Positions 1 through 38,163 of a stretch of 38,163 nucleotides of DNA are shown in pieces. Origin of the DNA: a virus (Duplodnaviria; Caudoviricetes); IMG/VR virus record IMGVR_UViG_3300023197_000052, positions 1 to 38,163 of that record; one strand, given 5' to 3'. The position numbers and the translations under genes are program-made. The notes under the pieces are model-generated. The model searched no databases. It had not been told where the DNA came from and saw only the letters and a program-made list of their open reading frames with translations. Numbering within the stretch: position 1 is the stretch's first letter; every line of letters begins with the position of its first letter.

Positions 1-33
1 GATGTCGCGCACCGGATCGACCTCGCCGTAGAG

Positions 34-72
34 CGGCGATCGAAATGGCAAAGTGTGACAGTAGTTGGCAAA
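34..72 (+). repeat. Left-end transposase-binding-type repeats (two adjacent ~20-bp sites)
   Basis: CGGCGATCGAAATGGCAA (34-51) is the exact reverse complement of 38001-38018; GTGTGACAGTAGTTGGCAAA (53-72) matches the reverse complement of 37864-37883 at 18/20. Confidence 0.85.
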
Positions 73-91
73 GACCCGCCGCGCGCACCTT

Positions 92-7191: not shown

Positions 7192-7237
7192 TGGCTAATG
7201 TCTGATGTCTGATCTCTGATGGCTGATGTTGATGCGG

Positions 7238-8911
7238 TTACTGGTCCGGTCGCTTGCCTCTCACCGCGTCGTCCAGGTCGCCGGTGTCGGGGTCTTTGGC
7301 GCCGTTGAACTGCTGGGCGATGTTGATGTTGGTGATGCCCTCGGGCGAACGAAAAGTCGAACCCACCTCGACATTGCCGCCCGCATTCTCGATGCCTTCG
7401 ATCACGCCGGACCGCACGTCGCCGGTGGCGGCATCCAACCCCGGTGTTCCAGCGCCGACCCCGACCGGAATCCCGATTGTGCTGGAGCCAATGTCACTTG
7501 GCACGCTGAGCGTGAGCGCTTGCTCCACCGCCTTTGCGGTGCTGAATCCCCGAGCCACCGCATCGTCGAATACCTCCAGTGCCGCGTTTTTTTCGGCGGC
7601 GGATATATCGCCGCTTAGCACCTCTTCTTCGAGCTGTCGGGACAGTGTGGATCGGATGAACTTTTGCTGCGTTGCCTTCGTGCTTGATTGCCGCCCAACC
7701 TTCTCTTGAGCCTCCTGGCGTTTCGCCGCGCGATTCAATCGGAAACGCGGCGACTCGGCTTCGATTTCAGCGAGCCGCTCCCCGGTCAAATTGACCTGGC
7801 TGGGATCAGCCTGGCCCGCCTGGCGCACCGCCTGGATGCGCGACTTAAACTTCTTGAATACCTCGTCCTTGGTCAGAATGCCCGCGAGCGGCCCGGCCTC
7901 GGTGCCGAAGATGCCGGCAAATTGTTTCTCGCTGATCTCGCCCTTGTCGCGTGCTTCTTTAACCCGCTCCAGCGCCGTGATCGTGTCCGTGCCCACCGGC
8001 ACGCCGATCTCGGGCAGCACCTCTTTACCCGTCTGCGATCGCTGAGCGCCAAGCAACTGGATCAGCCGTTTGCCCGCGGTGGCGGCGCGTCGCGTGGGCA
8101 GGCCCTGACCGGTGATGCCGGAGATAAAGCCGCCTGCCTCAGCCACGCTGAGCCCGCCCTCGGTCGTCGCCTCGCCGATGATGTCACCGAACGCTGGTCC
8201 AAGCGCGGCCGGGTTCTTCTCGCCCGCTTGCTCGATCGTTTTGAACAAAATGTTCTGGGCGCGCTTCGGGTCGCGCCCCGGAAGCTGGCTCTGGAGCGTG
8301 AGCAGCGGATCGGCGACGGTTTTGATCCCGCCCTGGGTCGTGGTCGCGCTTTCGAGGATTTCGTTGATGATGCGCTGCTGCTGCTCGGTCGACGACTGGC
8401 CGCGCCGGCTTTTGATTTCGGCCAGCAAGTTCACGCCGGCGGTCGGGTCCAATCCCTGCTCAGCGGCTGCCCGTCGCGCCTCGTTGATGTCCTCGGTCGA
8501 TGCGCCGAGAAAGCGCGCCTCTGTGCTGGCGTTGATCGCGTCGCGTTGCAGCCGGGCGTTTTCCTTTAGATGCCGATTCGCCTCCGCGATCGCTGACGCG
8601 TAAGCACGAAATGCCGCGACCACCCCGCCGACGCCGAGCATGCCGCCGGCCAACGATGCCACCGACTTCGCCGCTCCCTTCAGGCTCTGGCCGAAGCTGT
8701 CGGTTTGAGTCCTTGCTCCGCGAGCCCGTCGATCGAGCTGGTTGTAATTACGCGCCAGCTCCGCGTGCTGTTTCGCCGCGCGCGACGCCTGGTCGCCGGT
8801 CTTATCGACGACCCGGCCCAGCGCCTTGGTCGAGCGCGTCGTCTCCTTGAGCTTGCGCTCGGCCTGGCGGTTGTCCGCCGAGATGCGGTATTTGATCTCA
8901 CCTTCGGCCAT
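7238..8911 (-). CDS. Tail tape measure protein
   Basis: 557 aa, Ala/Gln-rich helical, N-terminal IKYRISAD motif, Gly/Ala-rich hydrophobic stretch, syntenic position. Confidence 0.8.
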   Translation of the reverse strand: MAEGEIKYRISADNRQAERKLKETTRSTKALGRVVDKTGDQASRAAKQHAELARNYNQLDRRARGARTQTDSFGQSLKGAAKSVASLAGGMLGVGGVVAAFRAYASAIAEANRHLKENARLQRDAINASTEARFLGASTEDINEARRAAAEQGLDPTAGVNLLAEIKSRRGQSSTEQQQRIINEILESATTTQGGIKTVADPLLTLQSQLPGRDPKRAQNILFKTIEQAGEKNPAALGPAFGDIIGEATTEGGLSVAEAGGFISGITGQGLPTRRAATAGKRLIQLLGAQRSQTGKEVLPEIGVPVGTDTITALERVKEARDKGEISEKQFAGIFGTEAGPLAGILTKDEVFKKFKSRIQAVRQAGQADPSQVNLTGERLAEIEAESPRFRLNRAAKRQEAQEKVGRQSSTKATQQKFIRSTLSRQLEEEVLSGDISAAEKNAALEVFDDAVARGFSTAKAVEQALTLSVPSDIGSSTIGIPVGVGAGTPGLDAATGDVRSGVIEGIENAGGNVEVGSTFRSPEGITNINIAQQFNGAKDPDTGDLDDAVRGKRPDQ

Positions 8912-9000
8912 GGTTGGGCTATGTGCTGTTGGCTGTTGACTGTTGGCTCGTCACACGTCTGGTCTGGCCAATGGCTCACGGCCAAGGGCCAACGGCTTGC

Positions 9001-9861: not shown

Positions 9862-9899
9862 CGTTTGGCTCCTGGCTGTTGGCTGTTGGCTGTTGGCAG

Positions 9900-10337: not shown

Positions 10338-10407
10338 GGTTGGCTTTTGGCTATCGGCTGTTGGCTGTTGGCGTTTGGCGGCCGGTTAAACGATGATTAA
10401 ATACCCA

Positions 10408-12118: not shown

Positions 12119-12182
12119 GGTTGGCTGTTAGCTTTTGGCTTGTGGCTGTTGGCCGTTGGCCGTTGGTAAACCGGACACTTCT

Positions 12183-12506
12183 TCACTCGGCGCCTTGTCC
12201 CTCGGTCCCTCGGTCCCTTGGTCCCTGCACCCGGCTGTCGCCGGGCACGGTGCCCAGCACGCGGTGGTTGGCGGCGACGCGTTTTCCGTCCGTGTCACGC
12301 GACTCCGTCAGCTTGTCGTGCTTGATCGCCTGTTCGTACTCGGCGCGCGTCATGTGCAGGATTTCGTTCTTGCCGCCGAAATCTTTCACCGGCTTGAGCA
12401 GTTGCACCTTGAGCATGCCGGGCGCGATCTCCGCCTCGTACGGCTTCTGCGTCACGGTGGTGTCGGCCGCTTCGGTTTGCTTCCGGGGGTTCCGGGGGTC
12501 AGCCAT
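12183..12506 (-). CDS. Hypothetical head-associated protein
   Basis: ATG 12506 preceded by AAGGA; 107 aa; C-terminus runs into octamer repeats. Confidence 0.55.
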   Translation of the reverse strand: MADPRNPRKQTEAADTTVTQKPYEAEIAPGMLKVQLLKPVKDFGGKNEILHMTRAEYEQAIKHDKLTESRDTDGKRVAANHRVLGTVPGDSRVQGPRDRGTEGQGAE

Positions 12507-14414: not shown

Positions 14415-15482
14415 TCAGCCCCAGCCGCTCTTTTTCTGCGAGTGGCGTGGGTTCTTCCGGGGGTCACCGTCGCCTTCCGCTTGCGCGGACGCTGACGTTC
14501 CTGGGACACCGTGGCGTGCGACCGACTCGGCGACGGTTTCAATGAGCCGGCCCACGGGGCCATCGGGGTCCGGGTCCGCCAGTTCGTTTTTGATCGCGGT
14601 TTTCACCGCGTCGTTGATCTGCTTTTGTGTCGGCGTGTTTTGACGCCAGAGCTTGACGCTGTTTGCGCCCTGGTTCTCTTGGTCGCGGTCGGCCAAGCTC
14701 TGAAGCTCGCTAAAATCGAGGTCGAGCGCATCGGCGATCGCCCGCAGGACGTTGTCGGGCGGGCGAATGATCTCGCCTCGCTCGATGCCGCCCAGCGTGC
14801 TCTGGTCAATGGGCAGGTCAGCCGCGACGTCCGCGAGCGTCATTTCCCGTTCTTCGCGCCGCGCCCGGATGCGCTGGCCGAGTTGCTCGCCTTTGGTTTT
14901 TGGATTCATCTTGCTTCCTTTTGCGAGGGCTTCCTGGTTCGCCGGCACACTCACCGCGCTGATCTCGATCAGCTCGATCTCGGTGAAGACGCGCACCTTG
15001 CGCGTTTCGCCGTCCACCTCCATCTCGCGCATCTGCCATTCGTGGACGATGAAGCCGACGCTCACCGCGCGCTGCACGCCCTGGCGGTAGCGCTGCCAAT
15101 ACCGCTCGGCGAGCTCGTCGTTGGTCATGAACTTCGCCGTGCCGCGCAATTGATTCTGCGACAGCTCGAGCGCCTGCCACTGGCCGATCGTCGTCGGCTC
15201 GCCGCTCACGCCCACGTGCATGTGGCCGGCAAGGAGGACGGGGTTGCGCTCGAAGCGGTCGAGCGCACGGCGGAACGCGGCCGGCTCGATCACCTCGCCA
15301 AAACGGTCGATGTCGTTGGTCGAACAAACAAAGCGGATCGTCCGCTCGTTTTCGTCGATCGAATCCGGCTGAGCGAAGGCGCGCGCCGCGCCGCGATCGC
15401 CCTGGCTCGGCTCGACCGACTTGGCGAGCGGGTTCAGCCAGCGCTGCTGAGCGTCGGCGTATTTATGCGCTTGATGTGGCAT
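14415..15482 (-). CDS. HK97-family prohead protease fused to an XRE-type HTH domain
   Basis: IDRFGEVI, NPVLLAGH, AVSVGF, LIEISAVSVPAN protease motifs, then LGQRIRARRE...TLADVA...STLGGIERG...LRAIADAL. Confidence 0.88.
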   Translation of the reverse strand: MPHQAHKYADAQQRWLNPLAKSVEPSQGDRGAARAFAQPDSIDENERTIRFVCSTNDIDRFGEVIEPAAFRRALDRFERNPVLLAGHMHVGVSGEPTTIGQWQALELSQNQLRGTAKFMTNDELAERYWQRYRQGVQRAVSVGFIVHEWQMREMEVDGETRKVRVFTEIELIEISAVSVPANQEALAKGSKMNPKTKGEQLGQRIRARREEREMTLADVAADLPIDQSTLGGIERGEIIRPPDNVLRAIADALDLDFSELQSLADRDQENQGANSVKLWRQNTPTQKQINDAVKTAIKNELADPDPDGPVGRLIETVAESVARHGVPGTSASAQAEGDGDPRKNPRHSQKKSGWG

Positions 15483-17955
15483 GATCGGCTTCCTTGCTTG
15501 GTTGGGGCGTTTGCTCGCGGGCGTCCAACTGCGCCAGCCTTCCGGGGGTCGTCACACCGAAGGCGAGGATTTTTTCGATGGCGTCCTCCATCGATTTGAC
15601 CTGGTCGTCGGGGAACCGGCTGATGCTGGTGCAGCCGCAGCTGATGTCCTGCTCGGGCACGCCGACGGCGCGCGGGTGGGGCGCGGTGTGGATCGTGCCG
15701 ACGATCTGAAAGTCGTCATCGCGCGGGATGGGATCATCCATCGTCGCCCGCTCGGTCGCGGCATGTTCGGGCCGGCCGGTTTCCTTGTGGCTCCAGAGCC
15801 AGCTTTTCATCGGCACATTCGCCTGATCTTTGCCGACAGCGCGCGACTCTTCGACCGCACTAGACGTTTCCTGAAACGCCACGGTGCGCGCCCGGGTGCC
15901 CTCGACGTTCATCCGCTTCTTCACGCGCTCGCCGAGCTGCTCGATGTTTTCGCCCGCTTCTAGGCCTTCGGCGAGATCGCTTCGCACGCGCTCGGCGACG
16001 CGGCGCGGCTGGCCCTTGATCTGCACGCGGCGCCGCCGGATCGCGGCCTGCGCTTCTTCGTCCCGGATATTAAATTGGTCCGCTTCTTCGGCGCCGGTAA
16101 TCGCGGCGACCTCGTCCATGATCTGCTGGCCGCCGAGCCGGACGCTCTCGCGCACCAGCGGGCCGGTGACGCTGAGCAGGTCGTTTTCGGCGGCGACGAC
16201 ATCGAACATGATCTCGGCGATCACGTCCTTGGCGCCGACGGGCAAGTCAAACACGCGCTCGTGCTTGGCACCCGTGTCCGGCTCGTGCCAGACCACGCCG
16301 AGCTGCTCGCCGTGCGCCTCGCTTAGCGCCTTGCGGCCCAGTGTCCGATCGAGGTTCTTCAAAATAGCGCGCCGCCACTTTTGCACGCGTCCGCGATACT
16401 TCTTTTCGAAGCTCTTACGGATGCCGTCCCAGCTTGCGCGCCACTGCGCCCACAGGCGCTGGCGTTTCTCCGGCTGCTCGTCCGGCGCCTCGACGGTCGG
16501 CGGATCGTCCGCGCGCTGTCGCCACGATGCTTCTGATGAATCGTCCGGCTCGGCTTGGTCGCCTGGCTCATCATTTTCGCCGGGCATCGGTTCGCCGATC
16601 TGGATTTCGGTCGCTTTTTGCCAACCGGTCTTCTGCCAGTCGTTGATGGGCAGCCCCAGGTCAAAGAGCTCGATCGCGTCGGCCGGCGTCGCCTTGAGTC
16701 GATCGACCATCTGCCCTGCCGTTTCGACGCGCGATGCGATCGTCTCTTTGACCGCGGGCACGTTCGACGAGTCGAACCAACTGACAAGCCGGCGGTTTCG
16801 CCGCGTCATCTGCTGCCGCGCTTTGAGGTGGCCGGGGCAGGCGCGTTGCTTGGGATCGGCCAGGCGGCGTGCGTGTTTCATCGCATCGCGCATCGCGATC
16901 GACCGATCGTCGGCGAAGCGTGCCACGATGCCTTTGTCGAAATGGCCGGCCAGCCAATCGGCCAACGGCAGAATGCGATCGATCCAGGCCGAATCCTTGG
17001 CCGACTTGACGTACTCGAAGCGGCCGCCTTCTGGCGAAAAACCGATGGCGGCTTTGTCGATGCCGTAGGCGGCGCAGATTTCCTCGACGCTCGTCCGGCG
17101 AAGCGTGGAAAACTCCATCTCGGAAAACGTCGCTTGCGTGCGCTCGAACTTGAGCCCGCCTTCCAAAAGCATGAACCGGCGGCGGTTTTGCGCGCCCGCG
17201 TGTTTCTCGTTGACTTGTTGCCGGATTTGGTTGCGCTGCTCGTCGGTCAGGCTGCTGTCAGTTTGCAGCGCGCCGCCGGGCTCGACGTCGTTGTCCAGGC
17301 TGTTTTCGTTGGCGCTGTCGGCTTTCCAGACCTGGTTGATCGCGCGCTTGACGACATCGAGGATGCCCACGCCCGTGTGTGGCTGGTTCGTGTCGAACGC
17401 GGGCACGTCGATGCGCCATTGCTCTTCGGGTTGGATCGTGAGCCGCTGGCCCTGGCTGCCGGCGGGTCGGTACGTGTAGCTGGTCACCTCGCCGCTCGTT
17501 TTGTCCACCTCCGGGGTCATCTGCGGCGCGCCCACCGGCAGCATCTCGGTGGGTTGGTTGCCGCGCATCTGAGTAAAGACCCAGTGCACGCGGCCGGTGA
17601 GCATCAGCCAGCCGGCGGTTTCCAACCAGAAATCGTCGCCGCTCACACCGGGGGCGGGGTTGTCGATCAAATCAATGATCGGCCCCGACTCCAAAAGCTC
17701 GTCGTTGGCCGTGGAGACGTTAAACGGCAGGCTGGCGATGGCGCCGGCGATGAACTGGGTGGCGCGGAACACGGCGGCGATCTGCTGGTACGGGTGACTG
17801 GGCCCGCGGTTTCGATTCGCCGGCCAGGCGCCGTGCTCGATCAGGTTGGCCCACGCCTCGACGCTCATGGACTGGGCGCTTTTGCCGCGCACGTGATCGG
17901 CCCACGCCTGAAGCGCGCTCTCGGTGGCCGCAAATTGTCGTCCGATCGTGGCCAT
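15463..17955 (-). CDS. Portal protein (HK97-type) fused to a Mu gp30/F-like head morphogenesis domain
   Basis: IASLP, NP, LTGR, LEGGLKF, EICAAYGI portal motifs; C-terminal RARTVA..ET...KSW...R.EH...P.....SCGC motifs. Confidence 0.85.
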   Translation of the reverse strand: MATIGRQFAATESALQAWADHVRGKSAQSMSVEAWANLIEHGAWPANRNRGPSHPYQQIAAVFRATQFIAGAIASLPFNVSTANDELLESGPIIDLIDNPAPGVSGDDFWLETAGWLMLTGRVHWVFTQMRGNQPTEMLPVGAPQMTPEVDKTSGEVTSYTYRPAGSQGQRLTIQPEEQWRIDVPAFDTNQPHTGVGILDVVKRAINQVWKADSANENSLDNDVEPGGALQTDSSLTDEQRNQIRQQVNEKHAGAQNRRRFMLLEGGLKFERTQATFSEMEFSTLRRTSVEEICAAYGIDKAAIGFSPEGGRFEYVKSAKDSAWIDRILPLADWLAGHFDKGIVARFADDRSIAMRDAMKHARRLADPKQRACPGHLKARQQMTRRNRRLVSWFDSSNVPAVKETIASRVETAGQMVDRLKATPADAIELFDLGLPINDWQKTGWQKATEIQIGEPMPGENDEPGDQAEPDDSSEASWRQRADDPPTVEAPDEQPEKRQRLWAQWRASWDGIRKSFEKKYRGRVQKWRRAILKNLDRTLGRKALSEAHGEQLGVVWHEPDTGAKHERVFDLPVGAKDVIAEIMFDVVAAENDLLSVTGPLVRESVRLGGQQIMDEVAAITGAEEADQFNIRDEEAQAAIRRRRVQIKGQPRRVAERVRSDLAEGLEAGENIEQLGERVKKRMNVEGTRARTVAFQETSSAVEESRAVGKDQANVPMKSWLWSHKETGRPEHAATERATMDDPIPRDDDFQIVGTIHTAPHPRAVGVPEQDISCGCTSISRFPDDQVKSMEDAIEKILAFGVTTPGRLAQLDAREQTPQPSKEADHATSSA

Positions 17956-20825: not shown

Positions 20826-20888
20826 TGGTCCGGGGGTCCGGGGGTCCGGGGGTCCGGGGGTCCAATGGTCGAATGGCCAAGTGGCCGA
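20826..20888. repeat. Octamer tandem repeats (GGTCCGGG x4 plus AATGGCCA-like x3)
   Basis: Directly visible, 5' of the 20818 start codon. Confidence 0.85.
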
Positions 20889-22015: not shown

Positions 22016-22043
22016 TCTGATTGCTGATTGCTGATTGCTGATG
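22016..22043. repeat. Heptamer tandem repeat (CTGATTG)n
   Basis: TCTGATTGCTGATTGCTGATTGCTGATG. Confidence 0.8.
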
Positions 22044-22263: not shown

Positions 22264-22307
22264 CTCGGTCCCTCGGTCCCTTGGTCCCTCGGTCCCTCGG
22301 TCCCTCG
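22264..22307. repeat. Octamer tandem repeat (GGTCCCTC)n, also at ~12197-12225
   Basis: CTCGGTCCCTCGGTCCCTTGGTCCCT shared between the two loci. Confidence 0.85.
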
Positions 22308-22500
22308 GCTTTCCGCCACCGCCAGGTATTGCTTGGCGCGCCGGCGATGCCAGACGCGGTCCTCGGCCGCCTCGCACAGCTCGGCAGCGAAGGCGTGCTC
22401 GCGGGCGTGTCGCTTGGCGGCCTGGCGCTGGGCTGGGGTGTGGGCCATGGAGGCGTCCTTACCTGGGCTGCCGGCCGTCCGGGGCCGGATCGGGGGCGAT

Positions 22501-27211: not shown

Positions 27212-27844
27212 ATGGCCAATAAGCAAGAGCTGACGGTTGCACCACCGAACCTGCAAACGGGCGTGTTTCGCATTCGCGGGACCAGTCCGTATGTCCAGAA
27301 CAAGTTTAGTGCCAAGGCGCGTGAGGAGATGCGCCAGAAGCAGGAGGCCGGATCGACGGCCAACAAGGGCAAGAAGAAGGAGGCCAAGGATTTTGAAAAG
27401 GCGGCGGAAGCTGGCAAGCACTACGCCTCGGACGGCTGGATCGGCATCCCCGCGCCCGGCCTTCGCAGCGCGCTCATCAGCGCGTGCCGGCTAGCCGGCT
27501 TTCAGATGGTCAAGGCGAAAATTGCCGTGATGGTCACGGCGGACGGCTTTGATGTCACTGACGGGACGCCGCTGGTCAAGATCGTCAAAGGTGAGCCCGA
27601 GTATCACGAAACGTTCGTCAGAAACGAGAGCGGCGTGGCCGATCTGCGGCCGCGACCGATGTGGCAGCCGGGCTGGGAAGCGGACGTGCGCATTCAGTTC
27701 GATGCGGACATGTTCACTTTGCAGGACGTCGCAAACCTGCTGGTGCGCGCCGGGATGCAGGTCGGCATCGGCGAGGGTCGAAACGACAGCCGCAAGTCGA
27801 CCGGCATGGGGTGGGGCCAGTTTGAAGTGCTCGCCAGCGAATAA
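27212..27844 (+). CDS. Stand-alone RAMP-superfamily (Cas7/Csm3-like) RNA-binding protein
   Basis: Strong AAGGAG RBS; FRIRGTSPY first strand, GIPAPGLRSALISA (compare IPGSSLKGALRS), C-terminal Gly-rich loop GIGEGRNDSRKSTGMGWGQFEV. Confidence 0.8.
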   Translation: MANKQELTVAPPNLQTGVFRIRGTSPYVQNKFSAKAREEMRQKQEAGSTANKGKKKEAKDFEKAAEAGKHYASDGWIGIPAPGLRSALISACRLAGFQMVKAKIAVMVTADGFDVTDGTPLVKIVKGEPEYHETFVRNESGVADLRPRPMWQPGWEADVRIQFDADMFTLQDVANLLVRAGMQVGIGEGRNDSRKSTGMGWGQFEVLASE

Positions 27845-27856
27845 AAGGGATTAAGC

Positions 27857-28360
27857 ATGGCAGTGAAGCCGAACGAAGAGCAGCAAGCGGAACTCGAACG
27901 GATTCGACAGGATCACGGCGGCATCCTGAACCCCAAGGACGTCGTGGCCGCAGCGTCTGACCCAAGCAACCCGCTTCACGGGTGTTTCACCTGGGATGAC
28001 CGCAAGGCCGCTTACGACTTTCGGTTGTGGGAAGCCCGCCAGTTGATCCGCGTGTCGGTCACCGTGCCCAGGCAGACGCAGCGGCCGACGCGCGCTTACG
28101 TCAGCCTCGATCAACAACGCGCCAACGGCGGCGGCTATCGGGCGCTCGCGGAAGTGCTTGAAGACGACGAGGCGCGCGAACAGCTTCTGCGCCAGGCGCT
28201 GCGTGAGCTGAAGGCGATCGAGCGCAAGTACCGCGAGCTAAAGGAGCTTGCCCCGATTTTCGAGCAGGCCGAGCAACTGCGACTGGACCACGCCCCGGCC
28301 GAGGCGGTCAACGAACCCGCCGCACAACCGTCAGCCGTGGCTGCGCTGGGCCAGGCGTGA
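27857..28360 (+). CDS. Partner protein of the RAMP gene (G.L.P..VV..A.DP..PLH..F.WDD..AA...R...AR.LI type)
   Basis: 167 aa, 12 bp after the RAMP stop, AAGGGA RBS; the 3' end overlaps the first degenerate pentamers. Confidence 0.75.
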   Translation: MAVKPNEEQQAELERIRQDHGGILNPKDVVAAASDPSNPLHGCFTWDDRKAAYDFRLWEARQLIRVSVTVPRQTQRPTRAYVSLDQQRANGGGYRALAEVLEDDEAREQLLRQALRELKAIERKYRELKELAPIFEQAEQLRLDHAPAEAVNEPAAQPSAVAALGQA

Positions 28361-28820
28361 CACGGCCGGCTAGGCCAGGCCAGGCTAGGCACGGCAAGGC
28401 GCGGAGTGGCGAGGCGCGGCAAGGCAAGGCGAGGCGCGGCAGGCGCGGCAGGCGAGGCCGGGCGAGGCGTGGCGCGGCGAGGCGCGGCGTGGCCAGACGC
28501 GGCAGGCGAGGCGTGACCAGGCGCGGCCAGGCTGGGCCAGGCGAGACCAGGCGCGGCCAGGCCAGGCGTGGCGGGCGAGGCGAGGCACGGCGGGGCAGGG
28601 CCAGGCGAGGCGGGGCGCTGCAAGGCAGGCCAGACTGGGCCGGGCCAGGCCAGGCCTGGCCCGGCAGGGCATGGTGATGCGAGCCGAGGCGAGTCTCGGC
28701 AGGCGGGGCACGGCGTGGCGAGGCGTGGCCAGGCGAGGCGAGTCTCGGCAGGCGAGGCTTGGCGAGGCGAGGCCCGGCGAGGCGAGGCCAGACTGGGCCG
28801 GGCTTGGCACGGCAAGGCAA
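28334..28820 (+). repeat. GGC-NN pentamer array, putative non-coding guide RNA precursor
   Basis: About 91 pentamers by manual count with near-constant GGC and variable NN, in blocks of 6, 14, 1, 10, 13, 10, 14, 9 and 14 separated by 4-nt GGCA/GGCC/GGCG. Confidence 0.9.
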
Positions 28821-28823
28821 AAC

Positions 28824-28851
28824 CACCGCGGGGCGTAACCGTCTCGCGGTG
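28824..28851 (+). other. Hairpin closing the pentamer array
   Basis: CACCGCG-G-GGCG-TAAC-CGTC-T-CGCGGTG, 12-bp stem including two G-U pairs; no U-tract. Confidence 0.7.
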
Positions 28852-28877: not shown

Positions 28878-28910
28878 GACATCAGACATCAAACATCAGA
28901 CATCAAACAT
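28878..28910 (+). repeat. Heptamer repeat (ACATCAG/A)n before transposase start
   Basis: GACATCAGACATCAAACATCAGACATCAAACAT; a related repeat lies on the - strand at 7192-7234. Confidence 0.85.
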
Positions 28911-28913
28911 TCA

Positions 28914-31217
28914 ATGACCGAACCCGCCTTACAACTTCACCGCCCTGATCGGCCGCCGGACGCCGCTTCCGGGGGCGGGGATTGGTCCCAATGGATCAGC
29001 GCGGCCGAGGCCGCCCGGCGGCTGGGCAAGGACCGCGATGCGCTGCTGCGCACCTGCCGGCAGAAGCTCCAGCATCAGGGGCTGGCCTATCACGGCACGC
29101 CCCCGAACGGCGGCAACGCCCGGTGGTTTGTCTTCCGGGGCTGGGCGCCCGGCAAGCTAAACGACGGGCCGGTGGGGGTCGCCCATCAAACGCCCGATTT
29201 GAGCCAGTACCCGCGGAAGGCGGTGCAGATCGCCTGGCGGCGCGTGCAGGCGGTGCAACGATTCCGCGAGGCCAAGCGCACGCGGCGCGGGCGAGTCGCC
29301 GACTGGCTCGATGACTGGATTCATCAAATGCGCGGCGAGCTTGGGATCAAGATCAGCCAACGCTCGTTGTATCGCTGGAATCAGCTCTACCAATCACCGG
29401 CGGATGTTGAGCAGCTGGTCGATGGCCGGGGCGGCGACCAGAAAAGCCTCGGCGATCCCGCGGCGTGGGATCATTTCAAGGAGCTTTATTTGGACGACCG
29501 CCAGCCCAGCCTCAAGCAATGCTGGCGCTATACGAAAGCGGAGGCCAAGGCGCGGGGCTGGAGCTGGTGCAGCGAGCGGAGCTGCCGGCGTCAACTCGAT
29601 GAGCGCATCCCTCCGGAAACCCAGCAATACCATCGCGCTCCGCGCCAGTGGCACAACCAGCGCGATTATCTGGCGCAAAACCCCGAGCGGTTCGGGGCCA
29701 ACGCGTGCTGGGTCGGCGATCATGCCCAGCTCGATTTCTGGTGCTTGTTCGGCAAGAGCCTGATCCGGCCGTGGCTGACCGCCTGGCAGGACTGGCGGAC
29801 GCGTCGGCTGGTCGGTTACACGCTAAGCGCCTCGCCCAACTCGTCCACGATTTTGCAAGCGTTCCGCGCGGCGGTGAAAGATCCCGCCAACCCCGGGCTG
29901 CCGGACGAGGTGCTGATCGACAACGGCAAGGATTACGACAGCTACGTCTTTAACGGACAGACCAAAAGCCAGCGGCTGACCAAGCAACGCCTCGAAGCGG
30001 ACGAACCGGAGTTCCGGGGGCTGTTCGGGATGCTCGAAGTCGAGGTGCATTTTTCCCTCGCCTACAACCCCGACTCAAAGGCTCGTTTGGAACGGTTGTT
30101 CGGCACGATCCACGGGTTTTTCGATAAGTTTCAATCGACCTACTGCGGCCGATCAAGCGAGGCCAAGCCCGAAAGTTTGGCGGAGACGCTCAAGCACCCG
30201 GAACGCATTCCGACGTTCGAGAACGTGGTCGAAAGCTTCCGGGGGTTTGCCAGCGAAATCAACAAGCGCGCCGATCACGACATCGCCGATCTGACCACGA
30301 CCGGCGACGAGCAGGGCCAGCCCGTCAGCCCCGATTGGGCGATGGACCAATGGTGCGACCGCAAGCGCGTGCCGGCCGATCCGCGCACGCTCGACCTGTT
30401 TATGATGCACTGGCACCAGCCGGTGCAGGCCACGCGCAACGGCATTTCGATCAAGCCGCTGGGCAAAACGCTCACCTATGGCGCCCACGATCCGGCGCTG
30501 ACCCCGTACAAGGGCACATCCAAAAAAGACCGACCCTGGCTGCACGTGGCCTACGACCAGAACGATCTGTCCACGATCGAGGTATTTGACCACCAACTGC
30601 GCCACATCACCACCTGCGAGCTGAATCAGTACAAGCAGCGCGGCGGCCAGCAGGGGCTCAACCGGCGCGAGCTGCAGCGCGCGATGAAGCGCCAGCGCGA
30701 ATACCAGAAAGCGCTCAAGACGGTGAAGGACAACCGCGAGCTGGAGATGCTCACCCAGGCCGAGCTGTTGGCGAAGGTCAACGCCGAATCCGAGAACACG
30801 GACCCGCCGCCCCCGAAGGGCGATGGGACCGATCAGCCGGCGGCGCTCGCGCCGGTGCGCACGCCGCTCGACGGCCAGGCCGAGCAGATCGAAAAAGGGC
30901 GGCAAAAAGAGCGTATGCGCCAGGCCGCCGGCGCGGAACACCACGGCGATGCAACGTCGGTTGATGACGATGAAGACACCGATCAATACACCAGCCTGGA
31001 CGACCTGGCCGAGCTTGGCCGCCAGCGCCAGGCCGAGCGCGACGACGACGAGGGGCCGATCGATTTAAGCGAGCATCGGCCCCCGGCACACCCCGAAACC
31101 GCGGACGATGACGATCAGGACACGGACGTCATGGACTCGCCCCCGCTTCGGCTGACCGAGCATCGCGATCACCGCGATGACGAGGATGAGGCGGGGCATT
31201 TGCTCGACGAGCTGTAG
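28914..31217 (+). CDS. MuA-like DDE transposase
   Basis: N-terminal HTH (WISAAEAARRLG), ISQRSLYRW, WVGDH, IDNGKD, SKARLERLF catalytic motifs, VAYD..DL..I.V C-domain, acidic tail. Confidence 0.93.
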   Translation: MTEPALQLHRPDRPPDAASGGGDWSQWISAAEAARRLGKDRDALLRTCRQKLQHQGLAYHGTPPNGGNARWFVFRGWAPGKLNDGPVGVAHQTPDLSQYPRKAVQIAWRRVQAVQRFREAKRTRRGRVADWLDDWIHQMRGELGIKISQRSLYRWNQLYQSPADVEQLVDGRGGDQKSLGDPAAWDHFKELYLDDRQPSLKQCWRYTKAEAKARGWSWCSERSCRRQLDERIPPETQQYHRAPRQWHNQRDYLAQNPERFGANACWVGDHAQLDFWCLFGKSLIRPWLTAWQDWRTRRLVGYTLSASPNSSTILQAFRAAVKDPANPGLPDEVLIDNGKDYDSYVFNGQTKSQRLTKQRLEADEPEFRGLFGMLEVEVHFSLAYNPDSKARLERLFGTIHGFFDKFQSTYCGRSSEAKPESLAETLKHPERIPTFENVVESFRGFASEINKRADHDIADLTTTGDEQGQPVSPDWAMDQWCDRKRVPADPRTLDLFMMHWHQPVQATRNGISIKPLGKTLTYGAHDPALTPYKGTSKKDRPWLHVAYDQNDLSTIEVFDHQLRHITTCELNQYKQRGGQQGLNRRELQRAMKRQREYQKALKTVKDNRELEMLTQAELLAKVNAESENTDPPPPKGDGTDQPAALAPVRTPLDGQAEQIEKGRQKERMRQAAGAEHHGDATSVDDDEDTDQYTSLDDLAELGRQRQAERDDDEGPIDLSEHRPPAHPETADDDDQDTDVMDSPPLRLTEHRDHRDDEDEAGHLLDEL

Positions 31218-31219
31218 CC

Positions 31220-32326
31220 ATGGCATCCGATGACATTCTCGATCGCATTGCCCAGGACGCACGGAGGCTGCGCGTGGCACGGAATCTGCCCGAAGGCAAA
31301 CTGAGCTGGGATTGGATCCAGCGCGTTCAGCAGGACTTCGAGGAGCTGCTGCACGCCCAGGGCCTGTCGGTGCAACAGGTCTCGCGGAAGCTGGGCAAGG
31401 GCTTTAGCCCGTCCACGCTCAGCCAGTTCCGGTCGATGGAAAGCGGCGATGAATACATCGGCGACATCGACCGGATCGTGCGCGGCATCAACCAGTTTAT
31501 TGAGACTTACGTGCGCAGCCAGCAGGTGCAGCGGCCGCGCGACTGGATCGACACAGCCGTGGCCAAGCGCATGATGAGCGTGATCCGCAACAGCGTGGAG
31601 CTGACCTCGATCGGCATCATCTATTCGGACGCCGGCCGGGGCAAGACGATGACCCTGCAGGCTGCGTCGCAAACGTTTCCGGGCTCCATCTTGCTTCGGA
31701 TCGGCCGGCGGTCGCGCACCTGCCCGGGGCTGGCACGCACCCTCGCCCGCACGCTTCGCATGAAAAGCAACCGCACGACCGGCGACCTGGAAGAAGCGCT
31801 GATCGATCAGCTCACCGGTTCGGGCCGGCTGATTCTGATCGACGAGGCGCATCAGCTCGACTTCGCCGCGCTCGAATTGCTTCGCGACTTACACGATGAG
31901 TGCGCTTTGCCGATCGTCTTCGCCGGCACGATCGACATCAACAAGAAGCTGACCGACAGCGACGTGTTTTACGGCCAGTTTAATCGGCGTGTGGCGGCCC
32001 GTTACGACGTCACCGAAAACCAGCGCGACGGCGGCGGGTCGACCAAGCCGCTTCACTCGGTGGACGAAATCCGCCGCATGTTCCAGGGCGAGCAAGTGCG
32101 GCTGACCGACGACGGGGCCACCACGCTGATGCATATGGCCAATCTTTTGGGGATGGGCGGGCTCGGCCTCTGCAACCAGGTCATGCTGATGGCTCAGCGC
32201 GTGGCGGAGGATGGCATAGTGGACTCGAAGACGATCCTCAAGGTCGTCAAGCAGATGCACGGTGTCGAGCACTACAAGCACAGGGTCGAGCGCGCGATTG
32301 AAAACAGCGACGTGAAAGCAGCGTGA
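31220..32326 (+). CDS. MuB-like transposition AAA+ ATPase
   Basis: N-terminal HTH, AGRGKT Walker A, LILIDEAHQL Walker B, LRDLHD, IVFAG, QFNRR. Confidence 0.93.
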   Translation: MASDDILDRIAQDARRLRVARNLPEGKLSWDWIQRVQQDFEELLHAQGLSVQQVSRKLGKGFSPSTLSQFRSMESGDEYIGDIDRIVRGINQFIETYVRSQQVQRPRDWIDTAVAKRMMSVIRNSVELTSIGIIYSDAGRGKTMTLQAASQTFPGSILLRIGRRSRTCPGLARTLARTLRMKSNRTTGDLEEALIDQLTGSGRLILIDEAHQLDFAALELLRDLHDECALPIVFAGTIDINKKLTDSDVFYGQFNRRVAARYDVTENQRDGGGSTKPLHSVDEIRRMFQGEQVRLTDDGATTLMHMANLLGMGGLGLCNQVMLMAQRVAEDGIVDSKTILKVVKQMHGVEHYKHRVERAIENSDVKAA

Positions 32327-33097: not shown

Positions 33098-33439
33098 ATG
33101 AGCAAAGATGGAAAAATAAGCAGCGCCGGTGTGACGCACGACCAAGTCGTTGAGTACATCAATGAAGTGGTCGGCGGCGACGATCCGCTCGCGCCATTGG
33201 AGTTGGCCCAAAGAATCGCGCTGAAGGCGCTGGAAAACAGCAACGGCGATAGTTTGAAAACAGTCGTCCGCGATGCGGATGAGCAACCGCTTTACGCCAT
33301 GATCGTCGTCAAGGGAGAGGGCACCGGCGAAATCGTCGCGGCCGTCGATGCCATCGAAGACCGATGGGAACGCGAACACGACCAAAAGGTCGAAACCAAC
33401 GGCCAACAGCCAACGGCTAAAAGCCATGAGTTGGAGTAA
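33098..33439 (+). CDS. Hypothetical acidic protein
   Basis: 113 aa, AAAGGA RBS. Confidence 0.65.
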   Translation: MSKDGKISSAGVTHDQVVEYINEVVGGDDPLAPLELAQRIALKALENSNGDSLKTVVRDADEQPLYAMIVVKGEGTGEIVAAVDAIEDRWEREHDQKVETNGQQPTAKSHELE

Positions 33440-37786: not shown

Positions 37787-37863
37787 CGGGGCGCCGAAGG
37801 CGCGCCGAGCGCCGAAGGTCGCGGCGCTCGCGCCCCGCTTGATTGTTTCACAGGCGGCCCGTT

Positions 37864-38018
37864 TTTGCCATTTACTGTCACACGCCTCGCCGATCGGCCG
37901 CTTTTTTGCCATTTCGATTTGCTCCCCGACGACCGGCTCACTTTTCCATAACTCACTATTAGTTCTGTAGTTGCCACCATAGGACGGCAAACCGACACGG
38001 TTGCCATTTCGATCGCCG
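37864..38018 (-). repeat. Right-end transposase-binding-type repeats (three sites)
   Basis: TTTGCCATTTACTGTCACAC (37864-37883), TTTGCCATTTCGAT (37905-37918), TTGCCATTTCGATCGCCG (38001-38018). Confidence 0.85.
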
Positions 38019-38163
38019 GATTACGGTTTCACGTGGCCGCCGCGAGTCTTATTCCTGTTTGAGCGCAAGCCCGCAGCTCGGTTGAGCTGAAGGTTGGCGC
38101 TTTCAGTTCGGTATCTGCCGCGTGTGCTGTCACGCACGCCGGCAACGCCCCGGCCGAAGGTGT

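Follow-up and report, generated by a model that had tools for sequence, protein, structure and literature searches.

A putative staggered VIPR guide array with tetranucleotide junctions in a Mu-like phage

A GGCNN tract in a Mu-like phage is likely a VIPR guide array. Cleavage of its transcript at or close to the 4-nt junctions would yield seven guides, which likely direct Vipr filaments to silence the DNA of rival phages. The window, i.e. the whole stretch of DNA analysed here, is a complete virus record of 38,163 bases. VIPR, a DNA silencer related to CRISPR and first published in 2026, combines a stand-alone RAMP and a single accessory gene with RNAs of 9–16 GGY/NN units. It reads DNA by skipping one base, in most cases the wobble base (bioRxiv 10.64898/2026.04.26.720920, also PMC13142463). 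A sequence-only reading of the tract had proposed seven separate guides with a gapped code, split by tetramers. This agrees with the published VIPR model, with the RAMP predicted for the neighbouring gene and with the matches found for blocks of related arrays.

The array consists of seven blocks separated by tetramers

The GGCNN tract at 28334–28830 was retiled independently with a scoring-based approach. This resulted in eight 4-nt units and seven blocks of five-base units, the blocks comprising 14, 10, 13, 10, 14, 9 and 14 units. A degenerate lead-in and a mini-block of a single unit were also resolved. The 4-nt units are GGCC at 28364, GGCG at 28570 and GGCA at 28438, 28447, 28501, 28624, 28698 and 28747, with no others; the letters are thus non-consensus in two of the eight junctions (GGCC, GGCG), and all eight register breaks are minus one. 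The eight tetramers of the sequence-only reading were recovered at the same positions with the same letters, and its NN strings for the seven blocks agreed letter for letter. Tandem Repeats Finder reported a period of 5 with 85.6 copies and a score of 212 for the tract. The array is far beyond chance. Its start lies within the last codons of the 167-aa gene and its end 93 bases upstream of the transposase ATG, the order on one strand being vipr, vap, array, hairpin and transposase. The features of the locus are as follows.

27212..27844, + strand: vipr, stand-alone RAMP (Cas7-like) gene, 210 aa, as predicted from the fold and a weak alignment with SUSP1 Vipr
27857..28360, + strand: vap-like partner gene, 167 aa, 12 nt 3′ of vipr; phrog_15946 (unknown function)
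28334..28367, + strand: lead-in block of six degenerate units, overlapping the vap stop codon and closed by GGCC at 28364 (tiling, ORF end)
28368..28437, + strand: candidate guide block 1, 14 units (tiling)
28438..28450, + strand: mini-block, GGCA, one unit, GGCA (tiling)
28451..28504, + strand: candidate guide block 2, 10 units and GGCA junction at 28501 (tiling)
28505..28573, + strand: candidate guide block 3, 13 units and non-consensus GGCG junction at 28570 (tiling)
28574..28627, + strand: candidate guide block 4, 10 units and GGCA junction at 28624 (tiling)
28628..28701, + strand: candidate guide block 5, 14 units and GGCA junction at 28698 (tiling)
28702..28750, + strand: candidate guide block 6, 9 units and GGCA junction at 28747 (tiling)
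28751..28820, + strand: candidate guide block 7, 14 units (tiling)
28824..28851, + strand: 12-pair hairpin directly 3′ of the array; z −4.25, none of 200 shuffles as stable
28914..31217, + strand: Mu-type DDE transposase gene (MuA-like); Pfam HTH_Tnp_Mu_2, DDE_2, Mu-transpos_C
31220–32326: MuB-like AAA gene, directly after the transposase gene; Pfam AAA_22

The tiling left no structured tail between the blocks, and an Rfam search of the locus gave no match up to E 1. Neither a sigma-70 promoter nor a T-tailed terminator was detected on the + strand at the locus; the 12-pair hairpin may shield or terminate the transcript. As naked RNA, block 5 shows strong self-folding (z −4.8). One Logan contig with a depth of 9.2, possibly the source of the window, covers the array without any difference.

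GGC starts 72 of the 84 units and GGY 73 of the 84. The NN letters are biased, with GA in 22/84 and CA in 15/84 units (together 37/84), so that each NN carries 3.38 of 4 bits over the 84 units and the earlier estimate of 18–28 informative nt per guide is slightly too high. Each block does have its own NN string, as had been proposed. Two three-unit runs with a rare unit each occur twice (28515–28529 and 28545–28559; 28628–28642 and 28786–28800; 0.056 expected, p ~0.001), and the blocks are therefore distinct without being wholly independent in origin. The rare unit is GAC, copied both within and between blocks, and the junction GGCGA GTCTC GGCA is also found twice in the array. VIPR guides may arise as copies of their neighbours and change later.

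On both strands, open frames run through the tract, and ORFs of 103–244 aa overlap it, as they would in a low-complexity protein-coding gene. The frames are open because T is scarce, and their translations are Arg/Gly/Ala or Pro/Arg/Leu repeats, a consequence of the 5-nt period. Related arrays also lie before, between or after genes and have any length. We therefore give a coding function next to no credence.

The neighbouring genes encode a predicted RAMP and a conserved partner

Pfam gave no match for the ORF at 27212–27844. A search for Vipr homologues returned 1917, and the closest relatives are 60–72% like the window protein. Its AlphaFold2 model has a pLDDT of 91.3. With this model, the Foldseek matches listed were all CRISPR Csm/Cmr/type VII/III-E complexes (best E 5.8e-6), and VIA-align against 6s6b_I gave Z 12.2 and rmsd 3.6 over 152 aligned residues, the VIPR criterion being a Z of at least 6 to CRISPR RAMPs. 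The vipr product is thus predicted to have a RAMP/Cas7 fold. In the model, the strand pair 129–151 would form the thumb, and the G-rich C-terminal loop contains the invariant residues G185, G189, R190, G198, G200, W201 and G202.

Alignment with SUSP1 Vipr (YP_009199429.1) by pairwise BLASTP was weak and full-length, with 21% identity over 190 columns and E 3e-5. hhalign aligned the stretch from thumb to G-loop with E 1.7e-5 and 78.5% probability, and a profile search gave a weak match to PDB 36pp, ‘SUSP1 Vipr protein’ (E 0.09). In the profile alignment SUSP1 R138, D177, W178 and R179 correspond to R148, E188, G189 and R190 of the window protein; the accessible part of the SUSP1 structural report links these SUSP1 residues to GGY binding (10.64898/2026.04.26.720927). 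Two SUSP1 contact residues are changed in the window protein, W178 to Gly and H17 to Asn. By these alignments the window Vipr would count as a homologue of a characterised Vipr, with weak similarity. The six clusters consulted for Vipr homology did not include the seed X1U2U4, and in the family of G001 the Vipr query was without match in 120 of 121 genomes, with one weak match.

For the partner gene 75 proteins were found including itself (74 homologues), and in at least 44 of 72 distinct loci vipr is followed by a homologue. Its N-terminal part is weakly winged-helix-like and its C-terminal part helical; the best fold matches reach only Z 5–6, none of them clear. No significant alignment with SUSP1 Vap1 (YP_009199428.1) was obtained. 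The locus is minimal, with vipr, one vap and no nuclease seen.

The cassette lies in a Mu-like phage

A Pfam search over 35 window ORFs identified portal, capsid and protease domains, a Mu-type transposase and a MuB-like ATPase; a terminase is also encoded. Inverted repeats are present near both ends of the window (26–82 and 37854–38026). They are likely transposase binding sites, which suggests a near-complete Mu-like genome. Transposase homologues with names come mostly from Phycisphaeraceae or Planctomycetota, and the host therefore probably belongs to a Phycisphaerae-like group. The prohead protease gene (14415–15482) encodes a Cro/CI-type helix-turn-helix domain at residues 200–261, an unusual fusion.

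Using tblastn, neither vipr nor vap was found in about 10 kb around each of 99 related Mu-like transposases. The Mu-like phage has therefore probably acquired the VIPR cassette sideways. These 99 loci contain just five short GGY tracts of 5–12 units; tracts in loci without a vipr match lie at L124:8378–8470, L146:9153, L180:9606 and L100:13423, and may represent solo guides or distant VIPR loci. In the window, neither CRISPR repeats or spacers nor further cas genes were detected (35 ORFs against Pfam; repeat search). Short tandem repeats of 7–8 nt lie between many of its genes (7192–7234, 8925–8948, 9865–9897, 10339–10379, 12120–12226, 20827–20870, 22017–22042, 22264–22308, 28878–28910 and 33396–33426). 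The repeat at 28878 is present on other contigs of the same runs and may therefore be a host-type element.

Related arrays share a conserved junction sequence

We parsed 90 distinct related arrays from 83 loci with a Vipr relative. With equal penalties, 464 of 489 register breaks were 4 nt long, 23 were 6 nt and 2 were of other length. Among the 464 tetramers, 335 were GGCA, 386 were NGCA and 400 ended in A, as compared with 31–37% A-ending tetramers expected had a random variable base been lost. The junction thus has a conserved sequence, mostly GGCA before GG. Inner blocks had 8–14 units in 254 of 369 cases, versus 22% for random breaks, and 1–3 units in 49 of 369. A GGY array was found within 1.5 kb of vipr in 54 of 72 distinct loci, located upstream of, between or downstream of the genes; the other 18 have no array by the stricter rule, and 3 of these 18 have one under a looser rule.

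Several window blocks had been seen to end in a non-GGC pentamer. As a family rule this failed, with non-GGY units at 74/337 last positions versus 577/3050 inner positions (p = 0.19), and only GAC was enriched as the last unit (26/337 versus 98/3050 inner, p = 0.0002). The fold downstream of the array had z < −2 in just 10 of 88 arrays (median z 0.13). A structured 3′ tail or hairpin is not conserved across related arrays.

We considered whether the tract could be a functionless, degenerate GGCNN microsatellite produced by slippage, as the two duplicated short runs and the other intergenic repeats of the phage might suggest. A slippage microsatellite should homogenise, as the sequence-only reading had argued; identical neighbouring units are not commoner than in shuffles (9/77 versus 7.2, p = 0.28). 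Moreover, the breaks are nearly always minus one, of a single sequence and evenly spaced. The location of the arrays, beside a RAMP gene in 54 of 72 loci versus five short tracts in the 99 vipr-less Mu-like loci, points the same way. Together with the target match described below, this makes a microsatellite highly improbable.

Cyanophage Cy-LDV1 (L002, BK059895.1) encodes an unannotated Vipr relative with 56.5% identity and carries two staggered GGCA arrays, at 15680–15869 and 16467–16627. Vipr relatives with 28–35% identity, annotated as hypothetical, are present in 25 Mycobacterium and 4 Gordonia phage records; such cultured phages could be test systems.

Six blocks of related arrays match coding sequences with one skipped base

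We compared 275 distinct blocks with 9–18 units with the window and 84 loci, on both strands and with the arrays masked (2.5 million letters). The null consisted of 14 shuffles per block and skip. At least three matches above the shuffle median were reached by 0, 6, 3 and 0 blocks at skips of 0, 1, 2 and 3 (expected 0.36, 0.71, 0.57 and 0.36), and at least four by 0, 2, 1 and 0 blocks (expected 0, 0, 0.14 and 0). At the margin of at least two, skip 1 and skip 2 were equal, with 13 blocks each versus about 5 expected. These counts alone are modest, and the weight rests on the positions of the six skip-one matches.

All six lie on the coding strand of a long open frame, with the third codon (wobble) base skipped; four blocks have 90–100% NN match and two have 77–78%, the published criterion being at least 80%. 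The best is a block of locus L008 that agrees in 20/20 letters with the Walker A codons of a Sak4-like gene (phrog_124) of L007. A block of L010 matches 18/20 further into the same gene, and one of L036 matches 25/32 on a similar Walker A. A block of L032 (at 1318) agrees in 22/24 letters, in frame, with the partner gene of each of two other VIPR phages (L021:10839 and L051:5546), which amounts to VIPR against VIPR via the accessory gene. The two remaining blocks match other genes (L032, 20/22; L062, 23/30). The in-frame 20/20 match comes close to refuting a microsatellite.

Inside the six blocks, which were chosen as maxima, 128 of 148 letters agree. In the blocks neighbouring them the agreement is 14/64 or 19/64, depending on whether the tetramer counts as a step, i.e. 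chance level. Since the match ends at the tetramer and the neighbours are at chance, the tetramer is a boundary between independent guides in related arrays.

The L008 guide (7460–7509), with its 20/20 match at L007:2611, matches its own copy of the gene (L008:7612) at just 17/20. Likewise, the L036 guide matches 21/32 on its own Walker A versus 25/32 on the foreign one. Both guides look as if they were aimed at kin, with self spared. Comparison of related-array blocks with 123 Vipr, 75 Vap and 120 transposase proteins gave no excess.

Search for targets of the seven window blocks

The window's own NN strings had been proposed as guides with gapped targets. In the gapped searches no window block gave a match accepted as above chance, blocks 28451 and 28702 being compared with the loci only and blocks 28368, 28505, 28574, 28628 and 28751 also with sequence collections. 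Relative to shuffles, none of the seven blocks had a target at skips of 0–3 in the window or the 84 loci, and no block had its best skip-one match inside the window (array masked). In the 99 loci around Mu-like transposases the best match was 22/28, with a null maximum of 21 in 40 shuffles, and was not accepted. Exact scans of viral contigs with the 12-unit core of block 28368 and the 11-unit core of block 28751 gave 0 matches each. With 8-unit seeds, in which 16 letters are forced, viral contigs gave 7 matches for block 28628 (extending to at most 21/28), 12 for block 28368 (at most 22/28) and 7 for block 28574 (at most 18/20). The 11-unit core of block 28505 had 0 matches in metagenomes, and among genomes around G001 block 28368 matched 0 of 281 and block 28628 matched 0 of 144.

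Several candidates were rejected. Block 28451 matches 18/20 in a tape-measure-like gene of L075. Here the skipped base is the second of the codon, and shuffled strings score up to 17, which makes this a likely chance match. The 9-unit seed of block 28751 had 41 matches in metagenomes, extending to no more than 23/28, of which 18 letters are forced, and lying in frames interrupted by stops. Block 28505 matched in 7 of 144 genomes around G001 versus 0 for its reversed control, a control that is not matched in codon make-up; the matches extend to only 20–21/26 and fall in unrelated host genes. As spellings of rival Mu transposases, blocks 28505 and 28628 reached 20/26 and 19/28 among 120 transposases, within the null.

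Such a blank would be expected if a real VIPR cassette had been gained sideways by the Mu-like phage and its guides were outdated or decaying, their targets gone. The lack of vipr and vap around the 99 related transposases fits this reading, as do the two non-consensus junctions and block 5, in which 4 of the last 5 units are not GGC-initial. Against decay, both genes are intact, with Vipr 60–72% like its closest relatives, GGC is kept in 72 of 84 units and the block lengths match the mode of the family. Moreover, sampling of Phycisphaerae phages is thin, and in the relatives, too, only 6 of 275 blocks gave targets in the sequence searched; the blank for the window blocks therefore says little. 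We consider a decayed cassette very unlikely.

Discussion

We conclude that the window locus is likely a staggered VIPR array, a system and layout already in print. The legend of fig. S18 in the discovery paper describes ‘staggered arrays with overlapping vrRNAs’, with guides from ‘1 nt overlapping positions’, and draws processed ends at the staggered junctions without a stated experiment (10.64898/2026.04.26.720920). Sequencing confirmed the ribozyme and single-guide layouts in that study, not staggered arrays (10.64898/2026.04.26.720920). The window shares with the published staggered arrays a lone RAMP gene with one partner gene in a phage, a similar guide length (9–14 GGY/NN units, published 9–16) and the lack of a self-match above the null in its own contig. 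Back-to-back guides with a one-base overlap are also common to both, as GGCA before GGC amounts to such an overlap. The target matches that end at the tetramer in relatives support the published drawing.

In its text, the discovery paper names no junction sequence, Mu-like carrier or staggered-array targets, its figures and data S1–S4 lying outside the text; its supplement text makes no mention of the GGCA word or of Planctomycetota. The accessible part of 10.64898/2026.10.15.759431, on infection biology, does not mention Mu-like or transposable carriers, staggered arrays or Planctomycetota, and that of 10.64898/2026.10.21.760802 does not mention staggered arrays. Relative to the texts searched, the Mu-like carrier and the GGCA junction word are new details, which the bioRxiv supplementary data may list.

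Comparison with type II VIPR (SUSP1, P. fulva), whose SUSP1 structures are the subject of 10.64898/2026.04.26.720927 as far as that report is accessible, reveals a homologous Vipr, with R148/E188/R190 where SUSP1 has R138/D177/R179. The SUSP1-type code, which skips the wobble base, and its targets, rival phage genes including the VIPR genes of other phages, both recur in relatives of the window locus. The guides differ: SUSP1 guides are separate units, mostly of GGT, each with a structured tail of ~40 nt, whereas the window has seven fused, tail-less blocks of GGC units, and its partner has no detectable similarity to SUSP1 Vap1. With class 1 CRISPR backbones (Csm3, Cmr, Cas7), Vipr has in common the RAMP fold, the glycine-rich loop and a filament along the guide RNA. 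Class 1 systems have a repeat-spacer array and several cas genes; neither was detected in the window, and its code is gapped.

By analogy with the published systems, an early operon would be read through vipr, vap and the array. One Vipr would bind per five-base unit, with GGC hidden and NN exposed, as the published structures suggest, and 9–14 Vipr subunits would coat each piece. The target would be read as NN-x-NN-x, and the seven blocks would therefore cover 27–42 bp each. The 4-nt unit would break the filament register, while its conserved sequence, mostly GGCA before GG, would mark the cut. Cutting at the junction would replace the structured tail of SUSP1-type guides and yield RNAs of ~49–74 nt. 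The complexes may then bind their 27–42-bp sites in rival elements and block transcription. As no nuclease was seen in the locus, the complexes would repress the transcription of competing elements within a Phycisphaerae-like host.

It is conceivable, if doubtful, that Vipr itself or its partner recognises the NGCA-before-GG junction as a sequence-specific signal for cutting. The array could instead stay uncut, each 4-nt unit ending one Vipr filament and starting the next, so that one RNA holds several independent guides. In line with this, the locus showed neither a nuclease nor a ribozyme (Rfam without match up to E 1), and the target evidence in relatives shows independent units, not cutting. 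A pure register break needs no fixed sequence, yet NGCA is found in 386 of 464 tetramers, and the ends drawn in fig. S18 are processed ends. We regard an uncut array as unlikely.

Were the junction indeed read as a cutting signal by Vipr or its partner, the two-gene cassette would split one tail-less transcript into seven guides without Cas6, a ribozyme or a repeat handle. It would then be the simplest self-processing multiplex guide array, located within the early operon of a transposable Phycisphaerae phage. With two genes and seven guides in 1.6 kb, the locus is compact and easily expressed, and could therefore settle the mode of cutting of staggered arrays. Should a 4-nt word be enough to separate guides, several DNA-binding complexes could be programmed at once from one short transcript.
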